A stretch of 64,000 bases of DNA. Origin: an uncultured Gemmatimonadales bacterium. GTDB taxonomy: Bacteria > Gemmatimonadota > Gemmatimonadetes > Gemmatimonadales > GWC2-71-9. The notes beneath the pieces are model-generated. The model saw nothing but the letters and a program-made list of their open reading frames with translations, was not told where the DNA came from and did not search any database. The stretch lies in contig CAVOMQ010000003.1 of NCBI GenBank assembly GCA_963697065.1, positions 43,974 through 107,973 on the forward strand. The letters are read 5' to 3'. Positions 11,306 to 24,741 of the stretch are shown here, piece after piece. Positions within the stretch are counted from its first letter, which is position 1. Each line of letters starts with the position of its first letter. The translations under genes and the position numbers were made by a program.

Positions 11306-11581
11306 TCAATGGTTCCAGTAGGTGTCAAGATTGATGCCCGAGTGGAACGGGTCGCACCGCACGCTGATCGGGTCACACGTGTCACAGTTGCCGGCACTGC
11401 AGTAGCTGTTTTCCTCGTAAGTCCCCGATTGATCAGTGTGGACGCAGAGGTGGTTGGCTTCAGCCTCGCATAAGATCCCCTGAGTGGCATGCAGGACTGG
11501 CGTTCTTCCCGCAAACGTGGCCAATGCCAATGTGATGATTGCCGCTGCCGAGAATCGGACAGCCTCTTTCCATGTTTGCAT
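11306..11581 (-). CDS. Secreted 6-Cys peptide P1
   Basis: GGAGG RBS; Sec signal ending PVLHA; mature part C-x7-C-x14-C-x4-C-x2-C-x6-C. Confidence 0.75.
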   Translation of the reverse strand: MQTWKEAVRFSAAAIITLALATFAGRTPVLHATQGILCEAEANHLCVHTDQSGTYEENSYCSAGNCDTCDPISVRCDPFHSGINLDTYWNH

Positions 11582-11819
11582 TGTGCTACCCTCCGTGGTT
11601 GGTTGCTCTCACTAACGACGGATTTCGCAGGACCCCGACCGAGCTACGCGCCGATGGCTGGTTAACCGACGTAGGATCGAGAGACCGTGTCTCGTCAGCT
11701 ACGCGGCTTCCGGCGACTCAGGCGGATGAAGCGGCCTCCACTCAAGCGATGGATGGTGTGCCCTCGCCATGTCGTGAGTATGCCAAGCCCCATCTTGCGC
11801 GCCACGATGTCTCCGTCCG

Positions 11820-11914
11820 GTGAAACCTCGCACCCTCAACACTCACCCATTCCCCGGATTCCGCCAGACCAGAAAACAGTGCTTTCTGCTGTTTTTCGCC
11901 CAGTTTCGCCTCGA
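11820..11914 (-). promoter_or_regulatory. Conserved intergenic element between AraC-like regulator and cargo (copy 1)
   Basis: Non-coding match to 22215-22310; contains AAAACAG-N9-CTGTTTT on the minus strand. Confidence 0.5.
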
Positions 11915-12586
11915 TTACCGATCTGTTACATATCCACCCATGCGCAGGCCGACCTCCAATACCGGCTCCCACGCTCCCATCGCCACGAGCTGCCGCCAGG
12001 TCCGCCCGAAGTACCGGTGGCACCAACGCGATACCGTCTTGACGTCGACGGCGGCCTGCTCGGCCGCCACGGCCTGCGGTTGCGCGGCCGCGATCGCCCG
12101 CGCGATCAGCTCCACGCACGACCCAAGCGCCCTCCAATCGTGGGGCAGCCATGCGCCGTATTTCCGAAGCGATCGGCGCAGCGACTCGGCATCGGCCTTC
12201 GGATCGCGGATGTCGAAGAACAAGCTGGCGAGGCCGAGCGATGCCCTGAATGCGATATACGCTGCAACATCGGTCGCATCGGGAATCCGGCGCTGACCGA
12301 TTGCGATCCTCATTTCAGGGATTGTGTCCGAGACCTCGGCGCCAAATGGCGTGAGATGCATGGCCGGGGGACACAGCAGGTTGAGTGTCGCGGACGCAAC
12401 GGCGCGAGCGCCAAACAACACCGTCGGACACCATGGACTGGCGCGCCACTGATCGACGGCCTCGGCGACACGCACCAGATGATCGTCGTCGTCCGGGACC
12501 ACCAGCAGTGTACCCAGCGGGCGCGGCGCAGGAGGCCCCGCAACAACCGCCTCCAGCGCCCCGGGTAGCAGGCAGCATACGGTCAT
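11915..12586 (-). CDS. AraC-like transcription regulator, copy 1
   Basis: Two HTH-like segments (ESLRRSLRKYG..PHDW; AAEQAAVDVKTVSRWCHRYFG); paralog at 22311-22982; ATG (MTVCC) preceded by GAGGC. Confidence 0.65.
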   Translation of the reverse strand: MTVCCLLPGALEAVVAGPPAPRPLGTLLVVPDDDDHLVRVAEAVDQWRASPWCPTVLFGARAVASATLNLLCPPAMHLTPFGAEVSDTIPEMRIAIGQRRIPDATDVAAYIAFRASLGLASLFFDIRDPKADAESLRRSLRKYGAWLPHDWRALGSCVELIARAIAAAQPQAVAAEQAAVDVKTVSRWCHRYFGRTWRQLVAMGAWEPVLEVGLRMGGYVTDR

Positions 12587-12640
12587 CAGCCAATGCCTCG
12601 AGTCGTGATCGCCCCACGCCCGCGAGCGCAGCACACCGCC

Positions 12641-12695
12641 GTGGCGTGGCGTGGCGTGGCGTGGCGTGGCGTGGCGTGGCGTGGCGTGGCGTGGC
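12641..12695. repeat. Pentanucleotide SSR (GTGGC)11
   Basis: 11 perfect units counted directly. Confidence 0.95.
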
Positions 12696-12700
12696 GTATA

Positions 12701-12729
12701 ACTCTACCGTCCGGGGTAACGCCTGTCAA
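12701..12729 (-). promoter_or_regulatory. sigma70-type promoter TTGACA-N17-TAGAGT
   Basis: Read directly; the -10 box is 5 nt from the SSR. Confidence 0.75.
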
Positions 12730-12809
12730 TGAGGCCTCGCTGCAGTGAGGATCCGCGGCGTGTATGGTTTCATTGCGTTGACGACTTACACCGCGCGGGC
12801 TCCCCCACC

Positions 12810-13294
12810 TCACCCCTCCCCCCGATCCAGCACCCGGTACTGGATCGCCTCCCCCACATGCGCCGGCCCCACCTCGGCCGCCCCCTCCAGATCCGCCAGC
12901 GTCCGCGCCAGTTTGAGCACGCGGTGATATGCCCGCGCCGACAGCCCCAGCTTGACGATCGCCTGCTTCAGCACCGCGTCGGTCGCGGCATCGGTCCGCA
13001 CGAACTTCGCCAATTCGCGCGGCCCCATGTGCGCATTGGCATACACCCCGCGCACTTCCCGGAACCGCTCCAGCTGTCGCGCCGCGCCGCCTCCACCCGC
13101 TGTCGCACCACGGTACTCGACTCCGCCGCCTTGCGCGCCGTGAGATCGTCGTACGCCACCGGCGGCACGCTGAGGTGAATGTCCACCCGGTCGAGCAGCG
13201 GCCCCGAGATCCTGGCCCGATACCGCTGCACCGCCATCGGTGAGCAGCTGCACTGCCGCGAGGCGTCGCCCAGGTAGCCGCAGGGGCAGGGATT
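12810..13294 (-). pseudogene. comM: Orphan 3' end of comM/yifB, copy A
   Basis: [10 protein letters not shown]...[12 protein letters not shown], a direct repeat of 23211-23692; homology ends at GATT (13291-13294); 1-nt indel near 13083. Confidence 0.9.
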
Positions 13295-13725
13295 GGTTGC
13301 CAAACTACCGTTGCGGCTGACCGCGCCGACACCGAAGCCGGGTTACCCCAAGCAGTTCAAGCACTTAGGGGATCATCTGAGGGCCCGGCGGATTGACCTT
13401 GGGCTCCTGCAGAGAGAGGTGGCGGCTCGGATCGGCGTCGAGAAGGCGACACTGATGAACTGGGAATTGGGACACACCGCCCCAGCACCGGCCGCCTATC
13501 CGGCGATCATCGCATTCCTGGGCTGCGACCCGCGTCCCGATCCCCGCGACGGCGGGTGCGGTAATACGCCGAGCGCGGTTGACCCGAGGCTGGTCCTTGG
13601 CTGATCTGGCAGTCCAAGCGGGCGTGGATCCGGCGAGCGTGGCGCGAGTCGAGGTCGACACGAAGGGGGTGACGTCGCGAGTCCGGCAAGCGATCCGGCG
13701 GGTGCTGGGGCTGGCTTCGGTTTGA
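13293..13725 (+). pseudogene. Tandem double-HTH XRE regulator, frameshifted in the linker
   Basis: LGDHLRARRIDLGLLQREVAARIGVEKATLMNWE. Removing one C in GATCCCC (about 13545) continues into a second HTH, AVIRRARLTRGWSLADLAVQAGVDPASVARVE, with stop at 13725. Confidence 0.7.
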
Positions 13726-14037
13726 CCGCCGAATGGGCAGTCGATTGGCCCTCGACGCCGTCCGGTCAGCCTCACATTGTGCGGCCAGTAAGCGAGGCGT
13801 CGATGCTACAATCGAAAGCGGCGTTCAGATCGACGAGCTTGGCATCGTGCTGCGCCACAGTGTCCTTTCGCACCGCAACCAGCCTGGTCCTGAGCTGCCC
13901 AATGTTTCGCCACATCCGTTCTCCGGAGAGCGCCTGTGCAGCGGCGACACCGCTACTTGTCAGGCCGACCGCCGGGCCGGGCCTAGTTCAGTGCGAACTG
14001 CCCGGATTTTCCGGGGAGACATGAGTAACATCAAGCG

Positions 14038-14376
14038 TCAGTAACCGATCAAGTATCCGGCCGCGGCCCCGAGCAGGACACCAATCAGGACAATTCCGAT
14101 GACCGCCGCACCGGATCCACCGTTCTCGCCTGCGGCCGCACCGGCACCGGCGCCAATAGCCCCGCCGACGAGCCCGCCCAGGATCGCGCCGGCGATCGCA
14201 CCGCTATGGTGCGTTACCGAATCCGGAAGCACGCGCGAAGATAAATCCGACCGCCCGATCACTTGCGATTGAACTGGTTGACTCATCCCCAACCGGTCCC
14301 CACCAATCACCTGAGCGCTCGCGGGAGCCGCCAAGAAGAGGCTGATCACAACCACCCGCCAACACGTACGCAGCAT
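14038..14376 (-). CDS. Secreted/membrane protein with glycine-zipper-like segment
   Basis: Signal peptide (ISLFLAAPASA), then AIAGAILGGLVGGAIGAGAGAAAG and a C-terminal TM. Confidence 0.6.
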   Translation of the reverse strand: MLRTCWRVVVISLFLAAPASAQVIGGDRLGMSQPVQSQVIGRSDLSSRVLPDSVTHHSGAIAGAILGGLVGGAIGAGAGAAAGENGGSGAAVIGIVLIGVLLGAAAGYLIGY

Positions 14377-14421
14377 CAGTGAAGCTCCCATGCAGAAGGC
14401 CGAATCCTCCGCTCGGCGACA

Positions 14422-14967
14422 TCAGAACGCCCATGCGTCCAAACGGTCGGAATATGGTGAGGAGTTCGGTTCCGCGCCAGTCCAACCACCGAACCGCTCG
14501 CCCGTCCAATAGCACTCTTCGTAGCCATTATCCTCAAGGGATGGGTTGGTGGACGCAACGCAATCCATCAACGGATAGGAACTCGATCCCACATTCCGGG
14601 CCGGCAAAATCGATATTTGGATGTTTCGGTTCCCTTCACACACCTCATCAATATGACCGCCACCAAAGATGCCAGCGTTGCACTCAGACTCGCTCGCGTA
14701 ATTGGCATGCTTGTTCAATGAAACATGCACGACAGGTATCCCGCCGTGATGGCTGGCGTCGTACGACAGCGCCGTCGGATAGCCGTCGACAGGGCTTAGT
14801 TCATCGGGCATCATGCTGGCGCCATTCGTGTTCGGGACGGACGCCTGATCAATCCAATACAGTTCGTAGTGTCCATGCTGTGAATATGCTGCCTTATCCA
14901 AGACCCAGTGGTGAAACGTGGGTTCGTACCGCACATCAAGAACAATTGCTTCGGAGTCACCCCAATG
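14422..14967 (-). pseudogene. 5'-truncated Vps62/NPP1-like secreted protein remnant
   Basis: HWGDSE...AAYSQHG...VHVSLNKHANY resembles the HxGDWE / YxSxH / GxHAxY pattern; Cys-containing C-terminus; no signal peptide or plausible start. Confidence 0.5.
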
Positions 14968-15151
14968 GCTGGTCGAGTCGTTCGAGCCGCCCCGTGGCAA
15001 CGGCTTGCCAGAAACCCGCGAGGGCACCCACGTCTTTACACCGGATGATCTCGATCGGAAATGGCTGGCCGGGATCGTACCGCACCAGCTCGCCCGGCAA
15101 TACTCCGAGCTCGGGGCAAGGCTGCCGCACGCGGTAATGCGAGGCGTTCAT
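14957..15151 (-). CDS. Small hypothetical protein, paralog of 400-678
   Basis: HYRVRQPCPELGVLPGELVRYDPGQPFPIEIIR..FWQAVATG; promoter at 15181-15209. Confidence 0.5.
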   Translation of the reverse strand: MNASHYRVRQPCPELGVLPGELVRYDPGQPFPIEIIRCKDVGALAGFWQAVATGRLERLDQPLG

Positions 15152-15180
15152 GGGGGACAACCGGAGCGAGAGGTAAGAGG

Positions 15181-15209
15181 AGGATACGGTGCAGGCTTCC
15201 GGACGTCAA
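15181..15209 (-). promoter_or_regulatory. sigma70-type promoter TTGACG-N17-TATCCT
   Basis: Read directly, about 80 nt downstream of the comM copy B stop, facing into the cassette. Confidence 0.65.
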
Positions 15210-15286
15210 GTATCGGTTAGCGGCCGACGCAAACTGTTCGCCGGATCCCGGCCGAACCGTCCATCCCGCCGCTCCCGCGCGACGCC

Positions 15287-15772
15287 TCACCCCTCCCCCC
15301 GATCCAGCACCCGGTACTGGATCGCCTCCCCCACATGCGCCGGCCCCACCTCGGCCGCCCCCTCCAGATCCGCCAGCGTTCGCGCCAGTTTGAGCACGCG
15401 GTGGTATGCCCGCGCCGACAGCCCCAGCTTGACGATCGCCTGCTTGAGCACCGCATCGGTCGCGGCATCGGTCCGCACGAACCTGGCCAGCTCCCTGGGA
15501 CCCATGTGCGCATTGGCATACACCTCGCGCACTTCCCGGAACCGCCCCAGCTGTCGCGCGCGCGCCGCTTCCACCCGCTGCCGGACCACGGTACTCGATT
15601 CCGCTGCCTTGCGCGCCGTGAGATCGTCGTAGGCCACCGGCGGCACGCTGAGGTGAATATCCACCCGGTCGAGCAATGGCCCCGAGATCCTGGCCCGGTA
15701 CCGCTGCACCGCCATCGGCGAACAGCTGCATTGCCGCGAGGCGTCGCCCAGGTAGCCGCAGGGGCAGAGATT
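15287..15772 (-). pseudogene. comM: Orphan 3' end of comM/yifB, copy B
   Basis: [10 protein letters not shown]...VLDRGEG*, in frame throughout; homology to comM ends at GATT (15769-15772). Confidence 0.9.
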
Positions 15773-16207
15773 TGTTGCCAAACTACCGCTGCGACTGACG
15801 GCACCTACACCGAAGCCGGGTTACCCCAAGCAGATCAAGCACTTAGGGGACGAGATCAGGGCTCGGCGGATTGATCTTGGGCTACTGCAACGAGAGGTGG
15901 CGGCCCAGGTCGGCGTGGACACGGCCACAGTACGGAATTGGGAATTGGGGCACAGGGCGCCAGTGACAGCCGCCTACCCCGCGATCATCGCCTTCCTGGG
16001 CTACGACCCGGTGCCAACGCCAAGGATGCTAGGGGAAGTCTCATCCGACATCCTCGACTCATAAACGGGTGGACGGTTGGGCACCTCGCAGCCATGGCTG
16101 GGGTCGTTCCGGTAACCGTGTCTCGAATGGAACAGGACATCCCCGGAACGGCTCGACGAGCCACCCGGACGATCTGCCAGGCAATGGGAGTCGTCGAGCA
16201 CGTCTAA
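15773..16207 (+). pseudogene. Tandem double-HTH XRE regulator, second copy, frameshifted in the linker
   Basis: VAKLPLRLTAPTPKPGYPKQIKHLGDEIRARRIDLGLLQREVAAQVGV; second HTH (LINGWTVGHLAAMAGVVPVTVSRME) lies in another frame after about 16040. Confidence 0.7.
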
Positions 16208-16241
16208 CCGGGCCAACGCCAGGGACGCACACCCCCACCAA

Positions 16242-19200
16242 TCAGCGCGGCCGCTGATTGGTGCGGAGCTGCTGCCGCTGACCGGGTGTGAGGACGCTCG
16301 TCGCATTCGCGTAGTACCGGAGGTCCAGGGAGGACAACGCCTGCACCACCGGTTCCGCTCTTGCACGCAGTTCGGCATCCCCAAGCCGGGGCCCCGCGCT
16401 CACAACGAACAGGGCCAGAGGTGCGAGGAGCGCATCGGTTTCGCGCTGGTATGCTGCGCTCAACGTGGCTAGCGAGTCGAGCTGACGGCCGGTCAGGGCG
16501 ATAGCCGCGCCAGTCGTGATTATCCGTGATATCGGGTCTATTACCCACTCACGCCGCAGTGCGCTCATCGCCTGGCTGAGCCGCGTCGAATCACTCCCGT
16601 GCGCCGGTAAGCCAAGCGCCTTGAGGAGCGCGTGCGACTGGCCCTGCGGCCCGAAGTCATATTGGGCACCGAGCCGGATCTGAAATGGTGGGAAGTGCTT
16701 GCGAGTATCGCCGTACATCAGCGATTGACGAAAAGGGGGTTGACCGTGTAGCGGAATGACTCGGTAGCCGGATCGAAGCCCGTCACATACAGGAGTCGCG
16801 GATCCGGCTGCTGGACCCCAGAGAATCGCCCGAATGGCGTGCTCTGCAGATGCAGCAGGCTTACGATAGCGCCTCCAGCGTTTAGAAGCTGCGTAGTAAC
16901 TCTGAGTCGATCGGTCAGGCCAAATGAGGCTGGTGGGGCAAAATCGAGGTTAAGATCCAACTGAATTTGCCATGAGCTTCGGCAGCTCTCCGCCCCGGCA
17001 ACTCGCCCGATCTGCGCCTGAAGACATGCCCTCGCCGGAGTGGGCGCCGTTCTGAGCACACTGCGCATCTGCGCAGCCAAAGCGGAGTCGCTGACCTTTG
17101 CGGGGTCGAAGATGAATGCGGCGTCATCGCCCGATATATGGTCGCCGTTGACGTCGCCAGCGACCACCGGCGTGAATGGAATTCCTGACGTCATCTGGAT
17201 CCGAGCGCCAAGGGTAAACCACCAGACGCGATACCCAAAGGATCCGACCTATCAGCCGGTGGACGGGCCGATCATTGATCACCGTTTGCACGGCACGAGG
17301 ATCCTCCGGCGTACCCCGGCGTTGGACTTGGTCCAGGTTGAGGGAATACGTGACGTCGAGTGGGATATTCCCAAAGAGGGCTTCAGTTCCGACGTGCACC
17401 TCGACTTGCTCTGCCACCCCGTTCAAGTCCGACACCCACCGGGTCACGCTGGCGAATCTAGGATCCACCCGCGCAGTCCCCGGACCGATCAGCCCGGTCG
17501 TTGGATCGATGCCGGCCGGATCTGCGAAGACCGGACGTCCATCTTCCTGCTGCAGCCGGAACACCGGGGCTGCCGGAAGATTGAGATCGGTGAACGACTC
17601 GATGTGGCGTCGCAGCGCCAGGGCGACCTGCGGCTGCACCCCCCATTGGCCAAGCCGAAAGCCGGTCCCGACCGATGCCTTCCACATCAGGGGTGGGCTG
17701 TATCGGGGGTCAAGCAACTGTACGGACGGTACGCTCGCGGCGAATGCCGGCATCCCAGCACTGTCTGCGCAGGTTGCCGGCGGAGGGCCCGCCTGCCAAT
17801 TGGCGGCTGGAACTGCCGGCCCCACGCACGACAAGCTCTCGGGCGCACCCCGCAGGCCGGTATTCGCGCTGATGCCATCGAGTCGGCTCGGGGACACGGT
17901 TCCCCAATAGGCACCGAGGCTTCCGTAGACGACCTGACCGACCGGGCCGACGTTCTGGACAGTCACATCGTTTGGCCCCAGTACGCCCGCCATGTTTGTC
18001 ATCGTGTTGGTGCCAGGAATTCGCACCCGAACGAACGGCACCTGGCCCTTCGGTCGGTGCACGATCCAGGCGATTCCAATGCGCGGGGTGAGTTCGATCA
18101 CAGCAGGGACGTGATCCGTCCGGTACCCGAACACTGACTCGACAACCGCGTTCAACGGTGGGGTTGCGCCAACCGTGAGGTAGTCAGCGCGTAATCCAGC
18201 GTCAACACTGACCCGCCGGGAGGCTTCCCAGAGGTCCGCGATCCAGACGCTCGGATGCCACGTGACGACGCTCTGGCTGCTCGGATCCAGGAGTCGCGAG
18301 TACGCTCCGGGCTGGTTTTGCTCGAGTTCGGCGAGCGACAGGTAGGCGAACGTGCCGTTTGGATTCGCACCGTTCTCGGCTCGCGTCCGCTCGATCTGCA
18401 AATCCTCCCCCAATCGGACGTGGTGAACATTGCCGTAAAGCTGGCGGGCGAGTTCGTCACGCACTTCCACGCGGAGGGTCGAAGCGTCACTCTGCGCGCC
18501 CCCACCGCCGAATTGCACCGTCGTGCGATCCTGACTGCGCCGTGTCGAATACTGTACCGATCAACACGGATCCGGTCGGGGTCGCAAGCAACGGCTCTGT
18601 ACGGCGCGACGACCGCGTGACAGCAGCCCGGAAATCGTTGACAAAGCCACCCAGATAATTCAGCGCTGTCAGCGAATACCTGTTGACATCATCTCGCCGG
18701 GTAACGGCCGTCGTTGGATAGGCGGCAGTTCCCACGCCTCCGCCGCTCTCGCGATGCCAAGTCGGCCAAGCCGAAAGGGTGACCCGATTCGTTGACCCCG
18801 GTTCCCAATCGACACTGAAGAATCCAGCTGCATCGAGCGTCTGGTCCGACCCAACACCGCGGCTCGGACGCAACGGAATGCCGTGCTCGGACAGCGCGGT
18901 TGAGATGCTCGTAATCGAATCGAGCGCCAGGCCTCGCTCGGCGAGCAGTGGTTCTGGCGCATCGAGAATCGACCGCAGCGGCTGAGATTGGAGCATCGCG
19001 GTCCAGGAAGCAAAGAAATGCCCATCCAGCCACGGGATCGGTCCGGAAGCTGCGCCCGATGACAGGAATTGCCGTGATGCGGGAAACGGCGACGCCGGGT
19101 CCGTCCAGGCGACACGGGGGTCGCTGTACGCCGCCCGCCCGACGGCCGTGGCCGTATTCGAACCTCGCTTGAGCGTTACATCCAGTTCGGCGCCCGGATT

Positions 19201-19851
19201 CTGGCTATGAGCGACATCGGCCGTCGTGCTCGCGTAACGGATTGCCGCGATTGCGTCCGGCGGCAGCAGCCTTGCGTCGGCGCGCATGCCATCCACGACG
19301 ACCGCGTTCTGGTCTGCCGGCGCACCCAACAGACTGCTGCCGGAGTCCGTCACGGACGTCTGCCCCAGGGCGTCAAGCAGTTCGTTCAGATCGCCGGCTT
19401 GATTCAGGATCAATCGCCGGGTGATCACCAGATTCTCTGTGCCGCCGACCGCAGGCCGAAGCCGATCGGATGGGGTAGCGATGTGGTTCGTCGTTGCAAA
19501 TAGATCGGGGAGCTTGAAGGGCGCGGACCGAAGCATGGTGTCGGCGACAATGCGTGACGCCGCTGAAGAAGCACGAGCGGTCCAGCGAACCGGAACGTAG
19601 CCGATCTTTCGGACCAGCAGTACCACACTTGCGGCTCCGTCGAACAGCACAGCCCGATATGACCCGGTCGAGTTCGTGTGGGCGATCTGTCGCTCCGCCG
19701 CGCTCTGTACCGAGACTTCAGCATCCAGGATCGGCTGCCGCAACGAATCGGTAATCCGACCTTCGACGACAGTTGGTGCCTGCGCCTTGGCTGGGTACGC
19801 CAGTGAACATACCAATCCCAAAGTGGTGAGGCCGCGCGACAGCAGCACCAT
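16242..19851 (-). pseudogene. TonB-dependent receptor with carboxypeptidase-regulatory-like N-domain (Oar-like), split into 4 ORFs
   Basis: VEGRITDSLRQPILDAEV..RKIGY N-domain; barrel motifs (DAGLRAD, PRIGIAW, VAGDVNGD, QIRLG). Frameshifts near 18500, 17150 and 16730 may be assembly errors. Confidence 0.75.
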
Positions 19852-19853
19852 CG

Positions 19854-21011
19854 TCAGTGGCGAGGCAATCCGCTCACCCGGTAGCGAACAAGAGTCGCCC
19901 CCTTTGGGAGGACGCGGATGCCGACAAGTGTCGCGCCGCTGACCGCCTTCAGCATGACGTCGCTCGGCAGCTTCACCTGCCCAATCAGATCCCCGCTTGG
20001 GTCAAGAACCGACCACGCTCGCTCGGACCCCTTTCCGTACATCTCCACCCAGACGGACCCATCGTCGGAGACCAGCAGTGCCTGCAACGGCTGGTGGAGG
20101 CGAGCTGGAGAAGCCCGCAACGCACTGTCGATCTGTCGGTTGCGCCCGGGGAGTCGCTCTTCGTCGATCACCGCCGCGATGCCACTATCGAGCTCCGGCG
20201 CTGTGACCGGCGTCATACTGGTCTGAAAACGACACGCGTACGCAGTGTCACCCATTGCGTCCGTTCGGACGACCGTGAACCAACCGGAATCCGGGCCCGT
20301 CATGATTCCCCGGGCATTCACGACGGTCCTGCCATTCGCCGAGATGGCGGTGTAGGGAGGACGGCAGTAGGGGATGGGAATCCAGGAGCCATCCGACAGG
20401 GACTGCTCGCAGAAGACCAACCCGCTTCGGACTGATGCCGCGACGCTCCGATACGAACCATCCGGTGCCGAGACGAGAAGCACCGACGCAGTGCGTTCGA
20501 CGTCACTTCGCAGCGCCGGAATATTCTCCAAGATCAGAAGATCGCCATTGGGCAGATATCTGATTACGCTTGGACCGAACAAGCCGTTGTGAGCCTTCGG
20601 CTGCACGCCGGGGGGTCCCTGAACTGTGCGGGGGACTGGCATTGTGCGGGCGACCGATCCCCGTGTATCGAACAGCGTCAGTCGGGCGAGCCGGTTGTCG
20701 TAAGTCCAAATCGAGTCGCCGCGCCATCCGGCCGATGGGCTCGCTATGAACTGGCCGGGCCCATCACCTTGGGTTCCGACCGTTCGCACCCGAGTGCCGG
20801 TAGAATCCAATACGTAAAGGGAGTAGTGGAATGGACCCGTCAGGAGCAACGAACCATTAGGTCCCAAGGTGACGTAGGCAGTCGAATCGAAACCATACCG
20901 CGAGATGTCGATCGAGAGATCCGAAGCAACGCCAAGCGCCGGCGGCACTTGCGCCGAAGCAGAACGAAGGAGCCCGATGACAACCCCCGCAAGGAGGGTC
21001 GGGATTCGCAT
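19854..21011 (-). CDS. 6-bladed beta-propeller secreted protein (module 2)
   Basis: Signal peptide; VGTQGDGPGQF, GDSIWTYD, VSDDGSVWV..WSVLDPSG motifs. Confidence 0.7.
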   Translation of the reverse strand: MRIPTLLAGVVIGLLRSASAQVPPALGVASDLSIDISRYGFDSTAYVTLGPNGSLLLTGPFHYSLYVLDSTGTRVRTVGTQGDGPGQFIASPSAGWRGDSIWTYDNRLARLTLFDTRGSVARTMPVPRTVQGPPGVQPKAHNGLFGPSVIRYLPNGDLLILENIPALRSDVERTASVLLVSAPDGSYRSVAASVRSGLVFCEQSLSDGSWIPIPYCRPPYTAISANGRTVVNARGIMTGPDSGWFTVVRTDAMGDTAYACRFQTSMTPVTAPELDSGIAAVIDEERLPGRNRQIDSALRASPARLHQPLQALLVSDDGSVWVEMYGKGSERAWSVLDPSGDLIGQVKLPSDVMLKAVSGATLVGIRVLPKGATLVRYRVSGLPRH

Positions 21012-21166
21012 CAATTTGTCCCCCGCCGCGCCACACACAGGAGTCGCCTAGTCCGCTGCCAGCGCCATTGGAGATGCGCGTGAGGAGCTGGACCGCGGTG
21101 TGCCAGCCCCCCCCGCGAATAGTAAAGCATGATGCGCCTGAACGCCGGCGACGAGACCACCGGTGA

Positions 21167-21463
21167 TCAGTAGATGCAGTGGTTCCCGTACCCAGAGCCC
21201 ATGTCCGAGCCATCTGGGGCGTAACAATCTGAAAAGTACTCGCAGTACGGTGCCTGCTCCTGCACGTCGCTCGAGCAGCCCCATTCGAGCGAGACGTCGA
21301 CGCACAACTGATGAGGATCGTCTGGACAGTCATCTCCCGCCTGGCATGCGTCGAATGCCATGCAGCCACCACCGCCCTGAGTAGCCAGTGCCGGCGTTGA
21401 GAAGTACGCCAGCGCAATAACTGAACTGCTCAACACAAGCAACAACTTCTGTCGAACTGTCAT
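21167..21463 (-). CDS. Secreted 8-Cys peptide P2
   Basis: GGAGG RBS; signal ending TPALA; mature part C-x5-C-x5-C-x7-C-x8-C-x10-C-x5-C-x15-C, acidic. Confidence 0.75.
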   Translation of the reverse strand: MTVRQKLLLVLSSSVIALAYFSTPALATQGGGGCMAFDACQAGDDCPDDPHQLCVDVSLEWGCSSDVQEQAPYCEYFSDCYAPDGSDMGSGYGNHCIY

Positions 21464-21505
21464 CGTTCCCTCCCGTTGAGTTGAATGATCGCTGCGCGCC
21501 GCGCT

Positions 21506-22186
21506 TTACGTTGACCGAGAACTTTGCCCAGCGGCCCTATGTAGGACGCGACGTACAATTTCGTCCAACCGCGCACTATCGAGAGCGCCAGTATAACGAA
21601 GCCCGTCGATGACAAGGGTCGGCGTCGCGTGAACCCCGGCTCGAACCGCCGCTATTGAATCCAGCGTGATCGCAGAAACAGGCGTCGATCGGTTGACGCA
21701 CGCAGCAAATGCGCCAGAATCCGTCACGCCAGCGTCGCGGGCGAAATCGGCAAAAGACTTCAGGCCCAGCGAATCCTGCTTCTGATACAATTCGTCATAC
21801 ATTGCCTCAAAACGATTCTGCGCTGCTGCGCATTCCGCGGCCCGGGCGCTAGCGTATGCGAAGCGGTGATATGGCAATGGGTAGTTCCGGAAAATGAGAG
21901 CAACTTGGCTGGGATACTCTGCATGAATTGCTCGAAATGAAGCAACAGCGAACGCACGGCAGGCCGGGCACTCGAAGTCACCGAACTCAATGATTGTCAC
22001 CGGCGCATGCAAGGGACCGATCCTGTGGCCGGCTGCGGCAAAGGTGAGCCAGTCGGAGATCTTCGTCGGCGCTTCCACCAGGGCTCTTGCACCCGCAGGC
22101 TTAGGCCAAAAAGTGCGCTTCACGCTGAGTCCGGTGGTGAAGACTGCGCAAACCGCTACCACGCCAATGACGACATTCGTCCTCAC
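21506..22186 (-). CDS. DsbA-family oxidoreductase (module 2)
   Basis: GPLHAPVTIIEFGDFECPAC, FRNYPLPYH, GVHATPTLVIDG; N-terminal TM. Confidence 0.85.
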   Translation of the reverse strand: MRTNVVIGVVAVCAVFTTGLSVKRTFWPKPAGARALVEAPTKISDWLTFAAAGHRIGPLHAPVTIIEFGDFECPACRAFAVASFRAIHAEYPSQVALIFRNYPLPYHRFAYASARAAECAAAQNRFEAMYDELYQKQDSLGLKSFADFARDAGVTDSGAFAACVNRSTPVSAITLDSIAAVRAGVHATPTLVIDGLRYTGALDSARLDEIVRRVLHRAAGQSSRST

Positions 22187-22214
22187 TTCGTTTCGTTCGA
22201 CGAAGTCTCTGCGG

Positions 22215-22310
22215 GGTGAGACTCGCCGCACTGAACACCTATCAATTCCCCGGATTCCGCCATACCAGAAAACAGCGCTTTCTGCTGCTTTTCGCCCAGT
22301 CACGCCTCGA
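22215..22310 (-). promoter_or_regulatory. Conserved intergenic element between AraC-like regulator and cargo (copy 2)
   Basis: Matches 11820-11914 (e.g. TCCCCGGATTCCGCCA.ACCAGAAAACAG.GCTTTCTGCTG.TTTTCGCCCAGT). Confidence 0.5.
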
Positions 22311-22982
22311 TCACCGATCTGTTACATATCCACCCGCCTGCAGAGCGGCCTCCAGCGCCGCCTCCCACGCATCCATTGCCACGAGCTCCCGCCAGGTCAG
22401 CCCGAAGTACCGGCGGCACCACCGCGAGACCGTCTTGACGTCCACGCCCGCCAGCTCCGCCGCCATGGCCTCCGTATGCCCGGCCGCAAGCGCCCGTGTG
22501 ATCAGCTCCAGGCAGCTCCCGAGTGCCCGCCAGTCGTGTGGCAGCCACGCTCCATACCTCCGGAGCGATCGGCGCAGCAAATCGGCGTCGACCGCAGAAT
22601 CCCGTAAGTCGGAGTACAGGTTGGCGAGACCGAGCGACGTCCTGAACGCGATGTAGGCGGCAATATCGGTGGCGTCGGGCATTCGGCGCTGACGGATTCC
22701 GTTCCTGATTTCGGCGACCGGGGGCAAAACCTCACCGCAAAGCGGAGTTACATGCATTGCAGAGGGAACCAGCAAGTCCAGGATCCGAGGCGCAACGTTA
22801 TGGGCGGCGACCAGGACCGTCGGGCACCATGGGCTGGCGCGCCATTGATCGACGGACTCCGCGACTCGCGCCAAATTGTCATCGCCGCCCGGAACCACGA
22901 GTACTGTGCCCAGCGGGCGCGGTGCGGGCGGCCCGGCGTCAATCGCCGTCGGTTCGCCGGGTAGCAGGCAACACACGGTCAT
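22311..22982 (-). CDS. AraC-like transcription regulator, copy 2
   Basis: Colinear paralog of 11915-12586 (MTVCCLLPG...GGYVTDR). Confidence 0.65.
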   Translation of the reverse strand: MTVCCLLPGEPTAIDAGPPAPRPLGTVLVVPGGDDNLARVAESVDQWRASPWCPTVLVAAHNVAPRILDLLVPSAMHVTPLCGEVLPPVAEIRNGIRQRRMPDATDIAAYIAFRTSLGLANLYSDLRDSAVDADLLRRSLRRYGAWLPHDWRALGSCLELITRALAAGHTEAMAAELAGVDVKTVSRWCRRYFGLTWRELVAMDAWEAALEAALQAGGYVTDR

Positions 22983-23036
22983 CTGTCGATGCCTCGGCTT
23001 GCGGCCACCAACCTCCCGCGAGCGCATCACACCGCC

Positions 23037-23104
23037 GTGGGTGGCGTGGGTGGCGTGGCGTGGCGTGGCGTGGCGTGGCGTGGCGTGGCGTGGCGTGGCG
23101 TGGC
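23037..23104. repeat. Pentanucleotide SSR: 11 perfect GTGGC units (23050-23104) plus 3 flanking units
   Basis: Counted directly; flanking units GTGG, GTGGC, GTGG at 23037-23049. Confidence 0.95.
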
Positions 23105-23109
23105 GTTCA

Positions 23110-23138
23110 ACGATACCGGCTGGTGCAACCGGTGTCAA
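23110..23138 (-). promoter_or_regulatory. sigma70-type promoter TTGACA-N17-TATCGT
   Basis: Read directly; same position relative to the SSR as the promoter at 12701-12729. Confidence 0.75.
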
Positions 23139-23210
23139 GCCGGCACCGCGCCAGCGCAGTTCCGCGGCAGTTACGTGTTGATCGGTGCCCGGATTTCCGG
23201 AACTGATCCG

Positions 23211-24741
23211 CTACTCCCCCCGATCCAGCACCCGGTACTGGATCGCCTCCCCCACATGCGCCGGCCCCACCTCGGCCGCCCCCTCCAGATCCGCCAGCGT
23301 CCGCGCCAGTTTGAGCACGCGGTGGTATGCCCGCGCCGACAGCCCCAGCTTGACGATCGCCTGCTTGAGCACCGCGTCGGTCGCGGCATCGGTCCGCACG
23401 AACTTCGCCAATTCGCGCGGCCCCATGTGCGCATTGGCATACACCCCGCGCACCTCCCGGAACCGCTCCAGCTGTCGCGCGCGCGCCGCCTCCACCCGCT
23501 GCCGCACCACGGTACTCGATTCCGCCGCCTTGCGCGCCGTGAGATCGTCGTAGCCACCGGCGGCACGCTCAGGTGAATGTCCACCCGGTCGAGCAGCGGC
23601 CCCGAGATCCTGGCGCGATACCGCTGCACCGCCATCGGCGAACAACTGCACTGCCGCGTCGCGTCACCCAGGTAGCCGCAGGGGCAGGGATTCATCGCCG
23701 CCACCAGCAGGAACCTCGCCGGGTACATGAGGCTCATCGCTGCACGCGCAATCGTCACCTGCCCGTCTTCCAACGGCTGCCGCAGCACCTCCAGCACATT
23801 GCTCGGCAACTCCGCCACTTCGTCGAGAAAGAGCACGCCGTGATGCGCCAGCGACACTTCGCCCGGGCGCGGAATCGCCCCGCCGCCGATCAATCCGGCA
23901 TACGAGACGGTGTGATGCGGCGCCCGGAACGGTCGGCGCGTCACCAGCGCCTGCCCCGCCGGCAGCAGCCCCGCCACGCTGTGGATCCGCGTCACGTCGA
24001 GCGCCTCGGCCAGCGACATCGACGGCAGGATGGTCGGCAGCCGCCGTGCCAGCATCGTCTTGCCCGCCCCCGGCGGACCGATCAGCAGCAGGTTGTGCGC
24101 TCCCGCCGCCGCCACCTCCATCGCCCGCTTGGCCGCGCGCCTGCGCCTTGACCTCGGCGAAGTCGACGTCAGCACTGCGGCAGCTCGTCCATCAGCGCGG
24201 CCGCGTCGGTGCGCACCGCGGCCAGCGGCGCCTCGCCGGTGACATGCCGGCAGACTGCCATCAGATTCGCGGCTCCCCGCACCGCCACGCCGCCCACCAC
24301 CGCCGCTTCTGCCACGTTCGCCTGCGGCAGGATCAGCTCGTCGCAGCCGAAGCCCCGCGCCGCCAGCGCAATCGGCAGCGCACCGCGAATTGGCCGGAGA
24401 TCACCCTCCAGACCCAGCTCACCAAGCAATAGCGAACGATGCAGCCGATCGTCGGGAATCTGCCCGCTCGCGGCGAGGATTCCGATGGCGACGGCCAGGT
24501 CGAACGCACTGCCCCGCTTCTGCACGTCGGCCGGCGCGAGGTTGACGGTGATGCGGCGCAGCGGCAACTGGAAGCCGGCGTTCTGGAGGGCGGCGGCGAC
24601 ACGTTCGCGCCCTTCCTTCACGGCGCCCACCGGCAGCCCCACCGTGGTGAACGACGGCAGCCCGTTGGCGATGTCGATCTCGACGTCGACGGCGAGCGCG
24701 TCGACGCCGAGGACAGTGGCGGAATGGATGCGGGAAAGCAG
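23211..24741 (-). CDS. comM: ComM/YifB Mg-chelatase-like AAA+ ATPase with three single-base frameshifts
   Basis: [14 protein letters not shown] start, [36 protein letters not shown]. Indels near 24172, 24140 and 23552; CTG follows the GGAGG RBS. Confidence 0.9.

Follow-up and report, generated by a model that had tools for sequence, protein, structure and literature searches.

A 64,000-nucleotide (nt) stretch of an uncultured Gemmatimonadales genome (contig CAVOMQ010000003.1; hereafter the window, with positions counted from its first nucleotide) contains two perfect (GCCAC)11 arrays, each situated at the very start of the predicted transcribed leader of one of two paralogous regulator genes, denoted A and B. 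Judging from comparison with related genomes, we consider it somewhat better than an even bet (probability about 0.55) that the arrays are slippage-prone microsatellites within the predicted leaders, which act as heritable expression dials on the regulators. Slippage would alter the unit number, the unit number would set the amount of full-length regulator mRNA in a heritable and reversible manner, and the outcome would be a rheostat or a contingency switch on the regulon. The likeliest read-out would be length-dependent loading of Rho on a ribosome-free, C-rich leader, resulting in premature termination. For the A/B subfamily a second option would be processing of a hairpin formed by the last units and a G-rich box, as in hmw of Haemophilus influenzae.

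Arrays, promoters and leaders in the window

Array A (12641-12695, minus strand) and array B (23050-23104, minus strand) were located by direct reading, by Tandem Repeats Finder (TRF) and with a repeat probe. TRF returns 12640-12697 for A (period 5 nt, 11.6 copies, 100% matches) and 23036-23106 for B (14.6 copies, 94% matches). Together with the decayed units that prolong array B (CCAC GCCAC CCAC, 23049-23037, minus strand; direct reading and TRF), this gives tract lengths of 55 nt for A and 68 nt for B. The preliminary description of this DNA had exactly 11 perfect units at both copies, which is right for the perfect arrays but leaves out the 13 additional nt of decayed units at B. A four-unit GCCAC probe matches nothing in 100 dinucleotide shuffles and, in the window, only the two tracts; no further (GCCAC)4+ tract exists elsewhere in the 3.18-Mb genome, a soil Gemmatimonadales metagenome-assembled genome (MAG) of five contigs. 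An independent short-read Logan contig (ERR11523645) terminates within array A and has the same 3' junction. Exact-protein look-ups returned one Logan contig (ending within array A) and no additional strains, and the 90% protein clusters of the window genes have as members only the copies of the window genome (G000) and of two relatives, G317 and G340.

Each array is preceded by a predicted sigma-70-type promoter, TTGACA-N17-TAGAGT at A (12729-12701, minus strand) and TTGACA-N17-TATCGT at B (23138-23110, minus strand). Both have 10/12 hexamer matches in the promoter scan and are the top two sites within the 14 kb scanned, and the first GCCAC unit begins 5 nt after each, so the succession of TTGACA-N17-TAnnnT, 5 nt and array described before is confirmed at both copies. 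The end of the array and the ATG are 54 nt apart at A (ATG 12586) and 67 nt apart at B (ATG 22982), in good agreement with the 55-68 nt claimed, and a GAGG Shine-Dalgarno sequence stands before each ATG (12596-12599 for gene A, 22992-22995 for gene B). Because the repeat lies past the -10 box, a change in unit number leaves the promoter geometry unchanged, and any effect would have to be exerted through the transcript or during elongation. That the repeat might be coding or act as a frame switch was considered and rejected: it shares the frame of gene B only if reading begins at the TTG of the -35 box, and in copy A it is out of frame with the gene, with a stop between them.

Directly 3' of array A and complementary to the repeat is a G-rich box, GGCGGTGTGCTGCGCTCGCGGG (12619-12640, minus strand), with a counterpart 3' of array B, GGCGGTGTGATGCGCTCGCGGG (23015-23036, minus strand). 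The 22-nt box, recognized by A/B comparison, has the form GGCGGTGTG(C/A)TGCGCTCGCGGG and is near-identical in A and B, in leaders whose adjacent sequence has diverged; in G317 and G340, too, it is better kept than the promoter spacer or the remaining leader. The box could be an RNA arm that pairs with the repeat, or it could be an operator. A metagenome scan with the leader box GGTGTGMTGCGCTCGCSGG gave 118 stretches, of which 80 were retrieved; none of the 80 has the repeat or the promoter, and these were set aside as chance matches.

Unit number varies between relatives

(GCCAC)n is absent from all 300 genomes that were sampled across the family. Within the genus the repeat is present in 6/52 genomes, with 14 arrays in total, whose perfect units number 5, 5, 6, 6, 8, 8, 9, 10, 11, 11, 13, 13, 13 and 13. 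Repeat length in related genomes, which the preliminary description had put forward as a check, is therefore variable (5 to 13 units, 14 arrays, 6/52 genus genomes). The gene A orthologue of G340 encodes a protein that is 94-96% identical, and the 500 nt downstream of its array are 98-100% identical, yet the array has 13 units where the window has 11. In G317 one of the two comM-linked copies has 5 units and the other 8, and their flanks are 96% (upstream) and 90% (downstream) identical to each other; a pair of orthologous LuxR-type loci has 6 and 8.

On the evidence of these comparisons the variation in unit number is the pattern of a fast-slipping repeat and not that of a length held at 11. 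The claim that unit number is conserved stands within the window genome (11 and 11) but does not extend to the relatives, where it ranges from 5 to 13; the 11/11 match is best put down to chance or to gene conversion between the copies. A slippage-tunable contingency locus, one of the two explanations offered at the outset, gains support both from the comparisons at near-identical flanks (11 vs 13, 5 vs 8) and from the recurrence of the same architecture before unrelated regulator genes, described below.

Very long microsatellites are found in contigs of the MAG CBDHHR01, which is labelled Metamycoplasmataceae (L215, L216, L223, L236, L237, L245, L251 and L256). They include GCCAC with up to 109 units, (GTCAC)n, (GCCCC)n, (CA)n and (AT)n. 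These contigs are very unlike a mycoplasma genome and are probably misbinned satellite DNA of a eukaryotic host.

Properties of the leader RNA

Over the first 78 nt from the predicted start the C/G ratio is 1.9 for leader A and 2.6 for leader B, which are the 98.9th and 99.9th percentile, respectively, among all 78-nt windows of the genome. The leaders are less folded than dinucleotide shuffles (z = +0.95, +2.21, +1.83 and +1.04). In leader B each unit added beyond about six is predicted to gain < 1 kcal/mol, so that additional units are predicted to be single-stranded. Rho is encoded in the genome (Rho_RNA_bind, 121.5 bits); C>G bias, predicted poor structure and an encoded Rho are the features of rut (Rho-utilization) sites that the window leaders possess.

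The specific form of the proposal that follows from Rho is offered tentatively, as a rather unlikely one when all its parts are taken together: the microsatellite would be a mutable Rho-loading pad, and slippage, by making the ribosome-free, rut-like leader longer or shorter, would heritably reset what share of the transcripts extends into the regulator gene, an attenuation rheostat in a soil Gemmatimonadales clade. The clade would use this rheostat on several regulators and on the lead gene of islands that integrate at comM.

Two other read-outs involve RNA structure. In both leaders the predicted unpaired probability of GAGG stays within 0.26-0.41 as the units go from 1 to 18, and this flat accessibility makes masking of the ribosome-binding site unlikely; as unit number leaves the predicted accessibility unchanged, Shine-Dalgarno masking was rejected as the read-out. 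Pairing of the G-rich box with about four repeat units gives a predicted duplex of -23.0 kcal/mol, which only 2.2% of control windows equal. A search of Rfam over 11500-24000 gave no match at E up to 1.

The same architecture recurs at other regulator genes

A strong match to the promoter form TTGACx-N17/18-TAnnnT lies upstream of 10/14 arrays, 5 nt before the first unit at nine loci and 8 nt before it at one. An eleventh array (G340_350k), in which GCCAC and TCCAC units are mixed, follows the same TAGCGT-TATAC. In 14/14 arrays the sense strand of the next gene carries GCCAC, and in 14/14 that gene is a regulator: ten are of one helix-turn-helix (HTH) family, three are small LuxR-type genes and one is a response regulator. 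Two of the LuxR-type genes were tested and have GerE scores above the cut-off (31.5 and 24.2 bits), the third being an orthologue of the first; the response-regulator gene scores 35 bits with Response_reg. The sequences upstream of the LuxR and response-regulator loci have about 52% identity to those of the HTH loci, which is background, and the contexts are therefore independent.

Other units occupy the same slot. The window genome has (CGACC)10 at another locus (G000:C1:540040-540089, L311), preceded by two units that are offset by one extra C. TTTACA-N17-GATATT is 7 nt upstream of it, and 56 nt separate it from a downstream gene of 111 amino acids (aa), which has zero Pfam matches and is LuxR-like by eye; the orthologous (CGACC)n loci in G317 and G340 have 11 units each. 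Among distant family members, G313 has (GCCCGAC)11 58 nt before the start codon and G311 has (TCCCGAC)6 28 nt before it. The CGACC, GCCCGAC and TCCCGAC units are all C-rich and G-poor on the sense strand, as GCCAC is, and their slot is the same. Taken together, the arrays appear to form a clade-specific class of C-rich, G-poor 5- or 7-nt repeats placed a few bases past the -10 box of regulator genes. Among (GCCAC)n arrays in other taxa, a -10-like hexamer stands just upstream in 5/66 on the sense strand vs 2/66 on the antisense strand, so that the promoter link belongs to the clade and not to the repeat.

Expression dials or neutral microsatellites

The main rival to expression dials is neutrality: the arrays would be mutational by-products, without regulatory role, which persist in the interval from the -10 box to the Shine-Dalgarno sequence, the one part of these short intergenic regions in which a change in length is harmless. 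We regard this as unlikely, although of the rivals it has the best chance of being right. The repeat itself, as (GCCAC)6+, occurs in > 120 stretches of other high-GC genomes, scattered over many taxa in unrelated contexts and with no evident role there; other intergenic repeats of 5 and 7 nt are present in the window genome; and the predicted Shine-Dalgarno accessibility is independent of unit number. Neutrality fits less well with the fixed 5-nt distance to the -10 box in nine loci and with a sense strand that is invariably C-rich. It also leaves unexplained why the next gene is always a regulator when regulators are a small minority of genes, why different units sit in the same slot, and why in other taxa (GCCAC)n shows no such promoter link.

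The wide occurrence of the repeat in other genomes is one of several points that tell against the expression-dial proposal. Every unit count is a single consensus per MAG, and microsatellites, functional or not, are expected to vary between species. Because 10/14 arrays precede one gene family, the independent contexts number about 6 to 8 and not 14, and at 3/14 arrays the promoter matches are weaker (TTGCGC or TTCCGC-N17-TACGTT-N7/8; TTGACA-N18-ATTAGT-N7). As to the two read-outs, relatives have arrays of 25-30 nt, which fall short of the 70-80 nt usually given for a canonical rut site, and most other arrays lack a G-rich arm that could pair with the repeat.

Island heads and bodies exchange at the arrays

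Genes A and B are each the lead gene of an island, and a copy of the comM 3' end stands upstream of each array. The array in front of the gene A orthologue of G340 is mosaic. Its upstream 500 nt are B-type (92-98% identical to B, the last 100 nt being 46-60% identical to A), its downstream sequence is A-type (98-100% identical to A, 64-80% to B), and the switch from B-type to A-type coincides exactly with the array. BLAST matches of four other heads end at the 3' edge of the arrays (12640 and 23036-23051), one of them within array B. The 466-kb locus of G317 and the 350-kb locus of G340 have a comM 3' end, an A-type promoter and an array that are 89-90% identical to the window. Their matches stop at 12640 and are followed by a different leader and a paralogue of 47-48% identity. 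Since the matches and the switch end at the array, the array is the final element of a conserved island 'head' and the point at which head and body are exchanged. Comparison of these loci shows the perfect array serving as portable homology that marks head/body recombination between islands, apparently as a side effect.

Were this not a side effect but the main purpose, the array would chiefly provide a stretch of perfect homology where the head ends, with which islands, incoming or resident, swap promoters and cargo. The B-type to A-type switch in G340 and the four heads whose matches end at the 3' edge or inside array B are what such a recombination handle would leave behind. We think it improbable, as the LuxR and response-regulator arrays are without a comM head, 25-65 nt is short for efficient homologous recombination, and the junctions may simply mark the end of a conserved module.

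Is a length of eleven units selected?

The second explanation in the preliminary description was a length-selected binding platform for an oligomeric RNA- or DNA-binding protein. In this view a TRAP-like ring would bind about 11 units, or a DNA-binding oligomer would sit over +1 to +55 and keep RNA polymerase out. The number 11 does recur, in both window arrays, in (GCCCGAC)11 of G313 and in (CGACC)11 of G317 and G340, and a location over the start site would suit a repressor. However, the (GCCAC)n counts span 5 to 13, the unit sequences vary by locus, with other units in the slot, and the unit is without a (G/U)AG triplet. The TRAP gene (TrpBP, PF02081) is absent from the genome, in a search that found the Bacillus subtilis control, and a binder of double-stranded DNA would need no strict strand bias. 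A TRAP-like 11-unit platform is thus very improbable. What we infer in its place is a looser platform, on which the hexameric Rho ring would land on C-rich, unstructured RNA.

That the equal counts (a concern voiced in the preliminary description), or the arrays themselves, arose from consensus errors in a long-read MAG is scarcely credible: comM in the region does read in three frames, suggesting single-base indel errors, but arrays stand at homologous positions in six independent MAGs, the short-read Logan contig has the same junction, and consensus errors rarely gain or lose whole 5-nt units.

The regulators encoded by genes A and B

Gene A (11915-12586, minus strand; open reading frame and structural model) encodes a two-domain protein of 223 aa, and gene B (22311-22982, minus strand; open reading frame and alignment) encodes a 223-aa paralogue with 70% identity. 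Both had been called AraC-like, a label that we have withdrawn. Pfam has no match above threshold for either protein, only sub-threshold matches to HTH_28, HTH_23 and HTH_29 at about residues 159-192. HTH_18 (HTH_AraC), the C-terminal double HTH by which AraC/XylS proteins are recognized, matches neither window protein and reaches only E 0.015, below the cut-off, in 1/17 family members. The alignment-based AlphaFold model is confident (pLDDT 90.3, pTM 0.89) and has an alpha/beta N-domain and a nine-helix C-domain. Foldseek identifies no significant match to it in the PDB (best E 0.25); NarL-type response regulators and MarA/Rns are among the non-significant matches, those to MarA and Rns having E values of at least 1. 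A sequence profile gave no significant match in the PDB either (best E 0.38). The family is essentially restricted to the genus, with a match in 19/101 relatives and 2/25 genera. The defensible label for A and B, from sequence and model, is that of an uncharacterised two-domain HTH regulator with a weak C-terminal HTH.

The gene A orthologue of G340 (G340:C6:202446-203115; L043, L016) is interrupted, with two overlapping pieces and one in-frame TGA. The regulator may be inactive in G340, though the 13-unit array there is perfect.

comM copies, island cargo and other repeats

The window has three copies of the comM/yifB 3' end, one upstream of each array and one without an array, and the relatives G317 and G340 share this comM stack. 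Copy 1 (12810-13382, minus strand; stop codon 12810-12812) is part of the head that ends at array A. Copy 2 (15290-15860, minus strand) is followed by a promoter-like site, TTGACG-N17-TATCCT (15209-15181, minus strand), without a repeat array, and is thus a head without a microsatellite; the gene downstream of it (14422-15027, 201 aa) has zero Pfam matches. The full-length comM/yifB (23211-24642, minus strand) has ChlI and Mg_chelatase domains, and its 3' end together with promoter B constitutes the head before array B. This sole full-length copy is split over three frames, with ChlI in 24172-24642 and Mg_chelatase in 23174-24175. Its Mg_chelatase_C is out of frame past ...VPPVA (near 23550); in copy 2 the same domain is in frame (15290-15781). 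Either this copy is a true pseudogene, or the long-read assembly contains single-base indel errors here.

Downstream of genes A and B the islands encode DsbA-like thioredoxins, TolB-like propellers and an outer-membrane barrel. A CarboxypepD_reg reading frame (18487-19851) and an outer-membrane beta-barrel reading frame (17124-18518), both on the minus strand, overlap by 32 nt; 17124-19851 looks like a single TonB-dependent-type receptor broken by a frameshift.

The window genome also has perfect heptamer microsatellites, namely (CTCGACC)8, (TTGCCGC)6, (TGAGCCC)6, (TCGACCC)6 and (CAGAGCC)5 (G000 C4:25652-25707, C1:895551-895592, C1:975532-975573, C2:328838-328879 and C4:105928-105962, respectively). 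Most of these are intergenic and have one C-rich strand.

Implications and comparison with known systems

To our knowledge, nearly all repeat-driven contingency loci described so far come from pathogens adapted to a host, in which they mostly control surface proteins. The arrays would extend the same contingency principle to an uncultured soil lineage of high GC content, in which its targets would be transcription regulators and the lead genes of islands whose cargo (DsbA-like proteins, TolB-like propellers, an outer-membrane barrel) is periplasmic or outer-membrane. Were Rho loading or leader processing tuned by unit number, microsatellite mutation would be linked to transcription attenuation. 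The exact mosaic junctions at the arrays also bear on how parts are exchanged among the islands stacked at comM.

The TRAP-binding trp leader of Bacillus subtilis has about 11 (G/U)AG triplets with a spacing of 2-3 nt. The window leaders resemble it in having eleven repeats with a periodicity of about 5 nt, but GCCAC is without GAG or UAG, the number of units is not fixed and the genome is without a TRAP gene.

Classical contingency loci include opa (CTCTT)n and nadA (TAAA)n of Neisseria (PMC2791445) and the T-tract rheostat of sabA in Helicobacter pylori (PMC4081817). Two properties of such loci are found here, a perfect repeat of slippage length and a unit number that is polymorphic with conserved flanks. 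As in opa, nadA and sabA, a slippage-prone repeat lies near the promoter and differs in unit number among relatives, and a graded or on-off outcome would be expected. Unlike that of opa, the repeat is outside the coding frame, and unlike those of nadA and sabA it is neither upstream of the promoter nor in the promoter spacer but past the -10 box.

Rho-dependent attenuation within a leader is exemplified by mgtA and corA of Salmonella (PMC5314796), and criteria for rut sites have been set out (PMC6407284). The window leaders are like those of mgtA and corA in being predicted to be ribosome-free, C>G-biased and poorly structured, in a genome that encodes Rho. Known rut sites, in contrast, are neither microsatellites nor mutable in length; several of the arrays are shorter than a canonical rut site, and termination at them is purely our inference.

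The nearest described system, by analogy, appears to be the 5' untranslated region of hmw1A and hmw2A in H. influenzae, where the level of the adhesin is set by a transcribed (ATCTTTC)n repeat, which forms a duplex with a G-rich arm and undergoes RNase III processing (PMC12721329). The unit of the window arrays differs in being a C-rich pentamer that starts at the predicted +1. Unit counts go down to 5 here and are never < 11 in hmw, and only about four units can pair with the 22-nt box, compared with 10 in hmw. The whole leader is no better folded than its shuffles (z +0.95 to +2.2), and the targets are regulators in a soil bacterium, unlike the adhesin of a pathogen. What the two systems have in common is a perfect tandem repeat between promoter and start codon (transcription of the leader being predicted in our case), a G-rich segment 3' of the repeat that is able to pair with it, and two paralogous loci per genome. 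In both, the repeat number is variable, between strains in hmw and between relatives here, and gene conversion between the two loci, known for hmw, is a candidate process for A and B.

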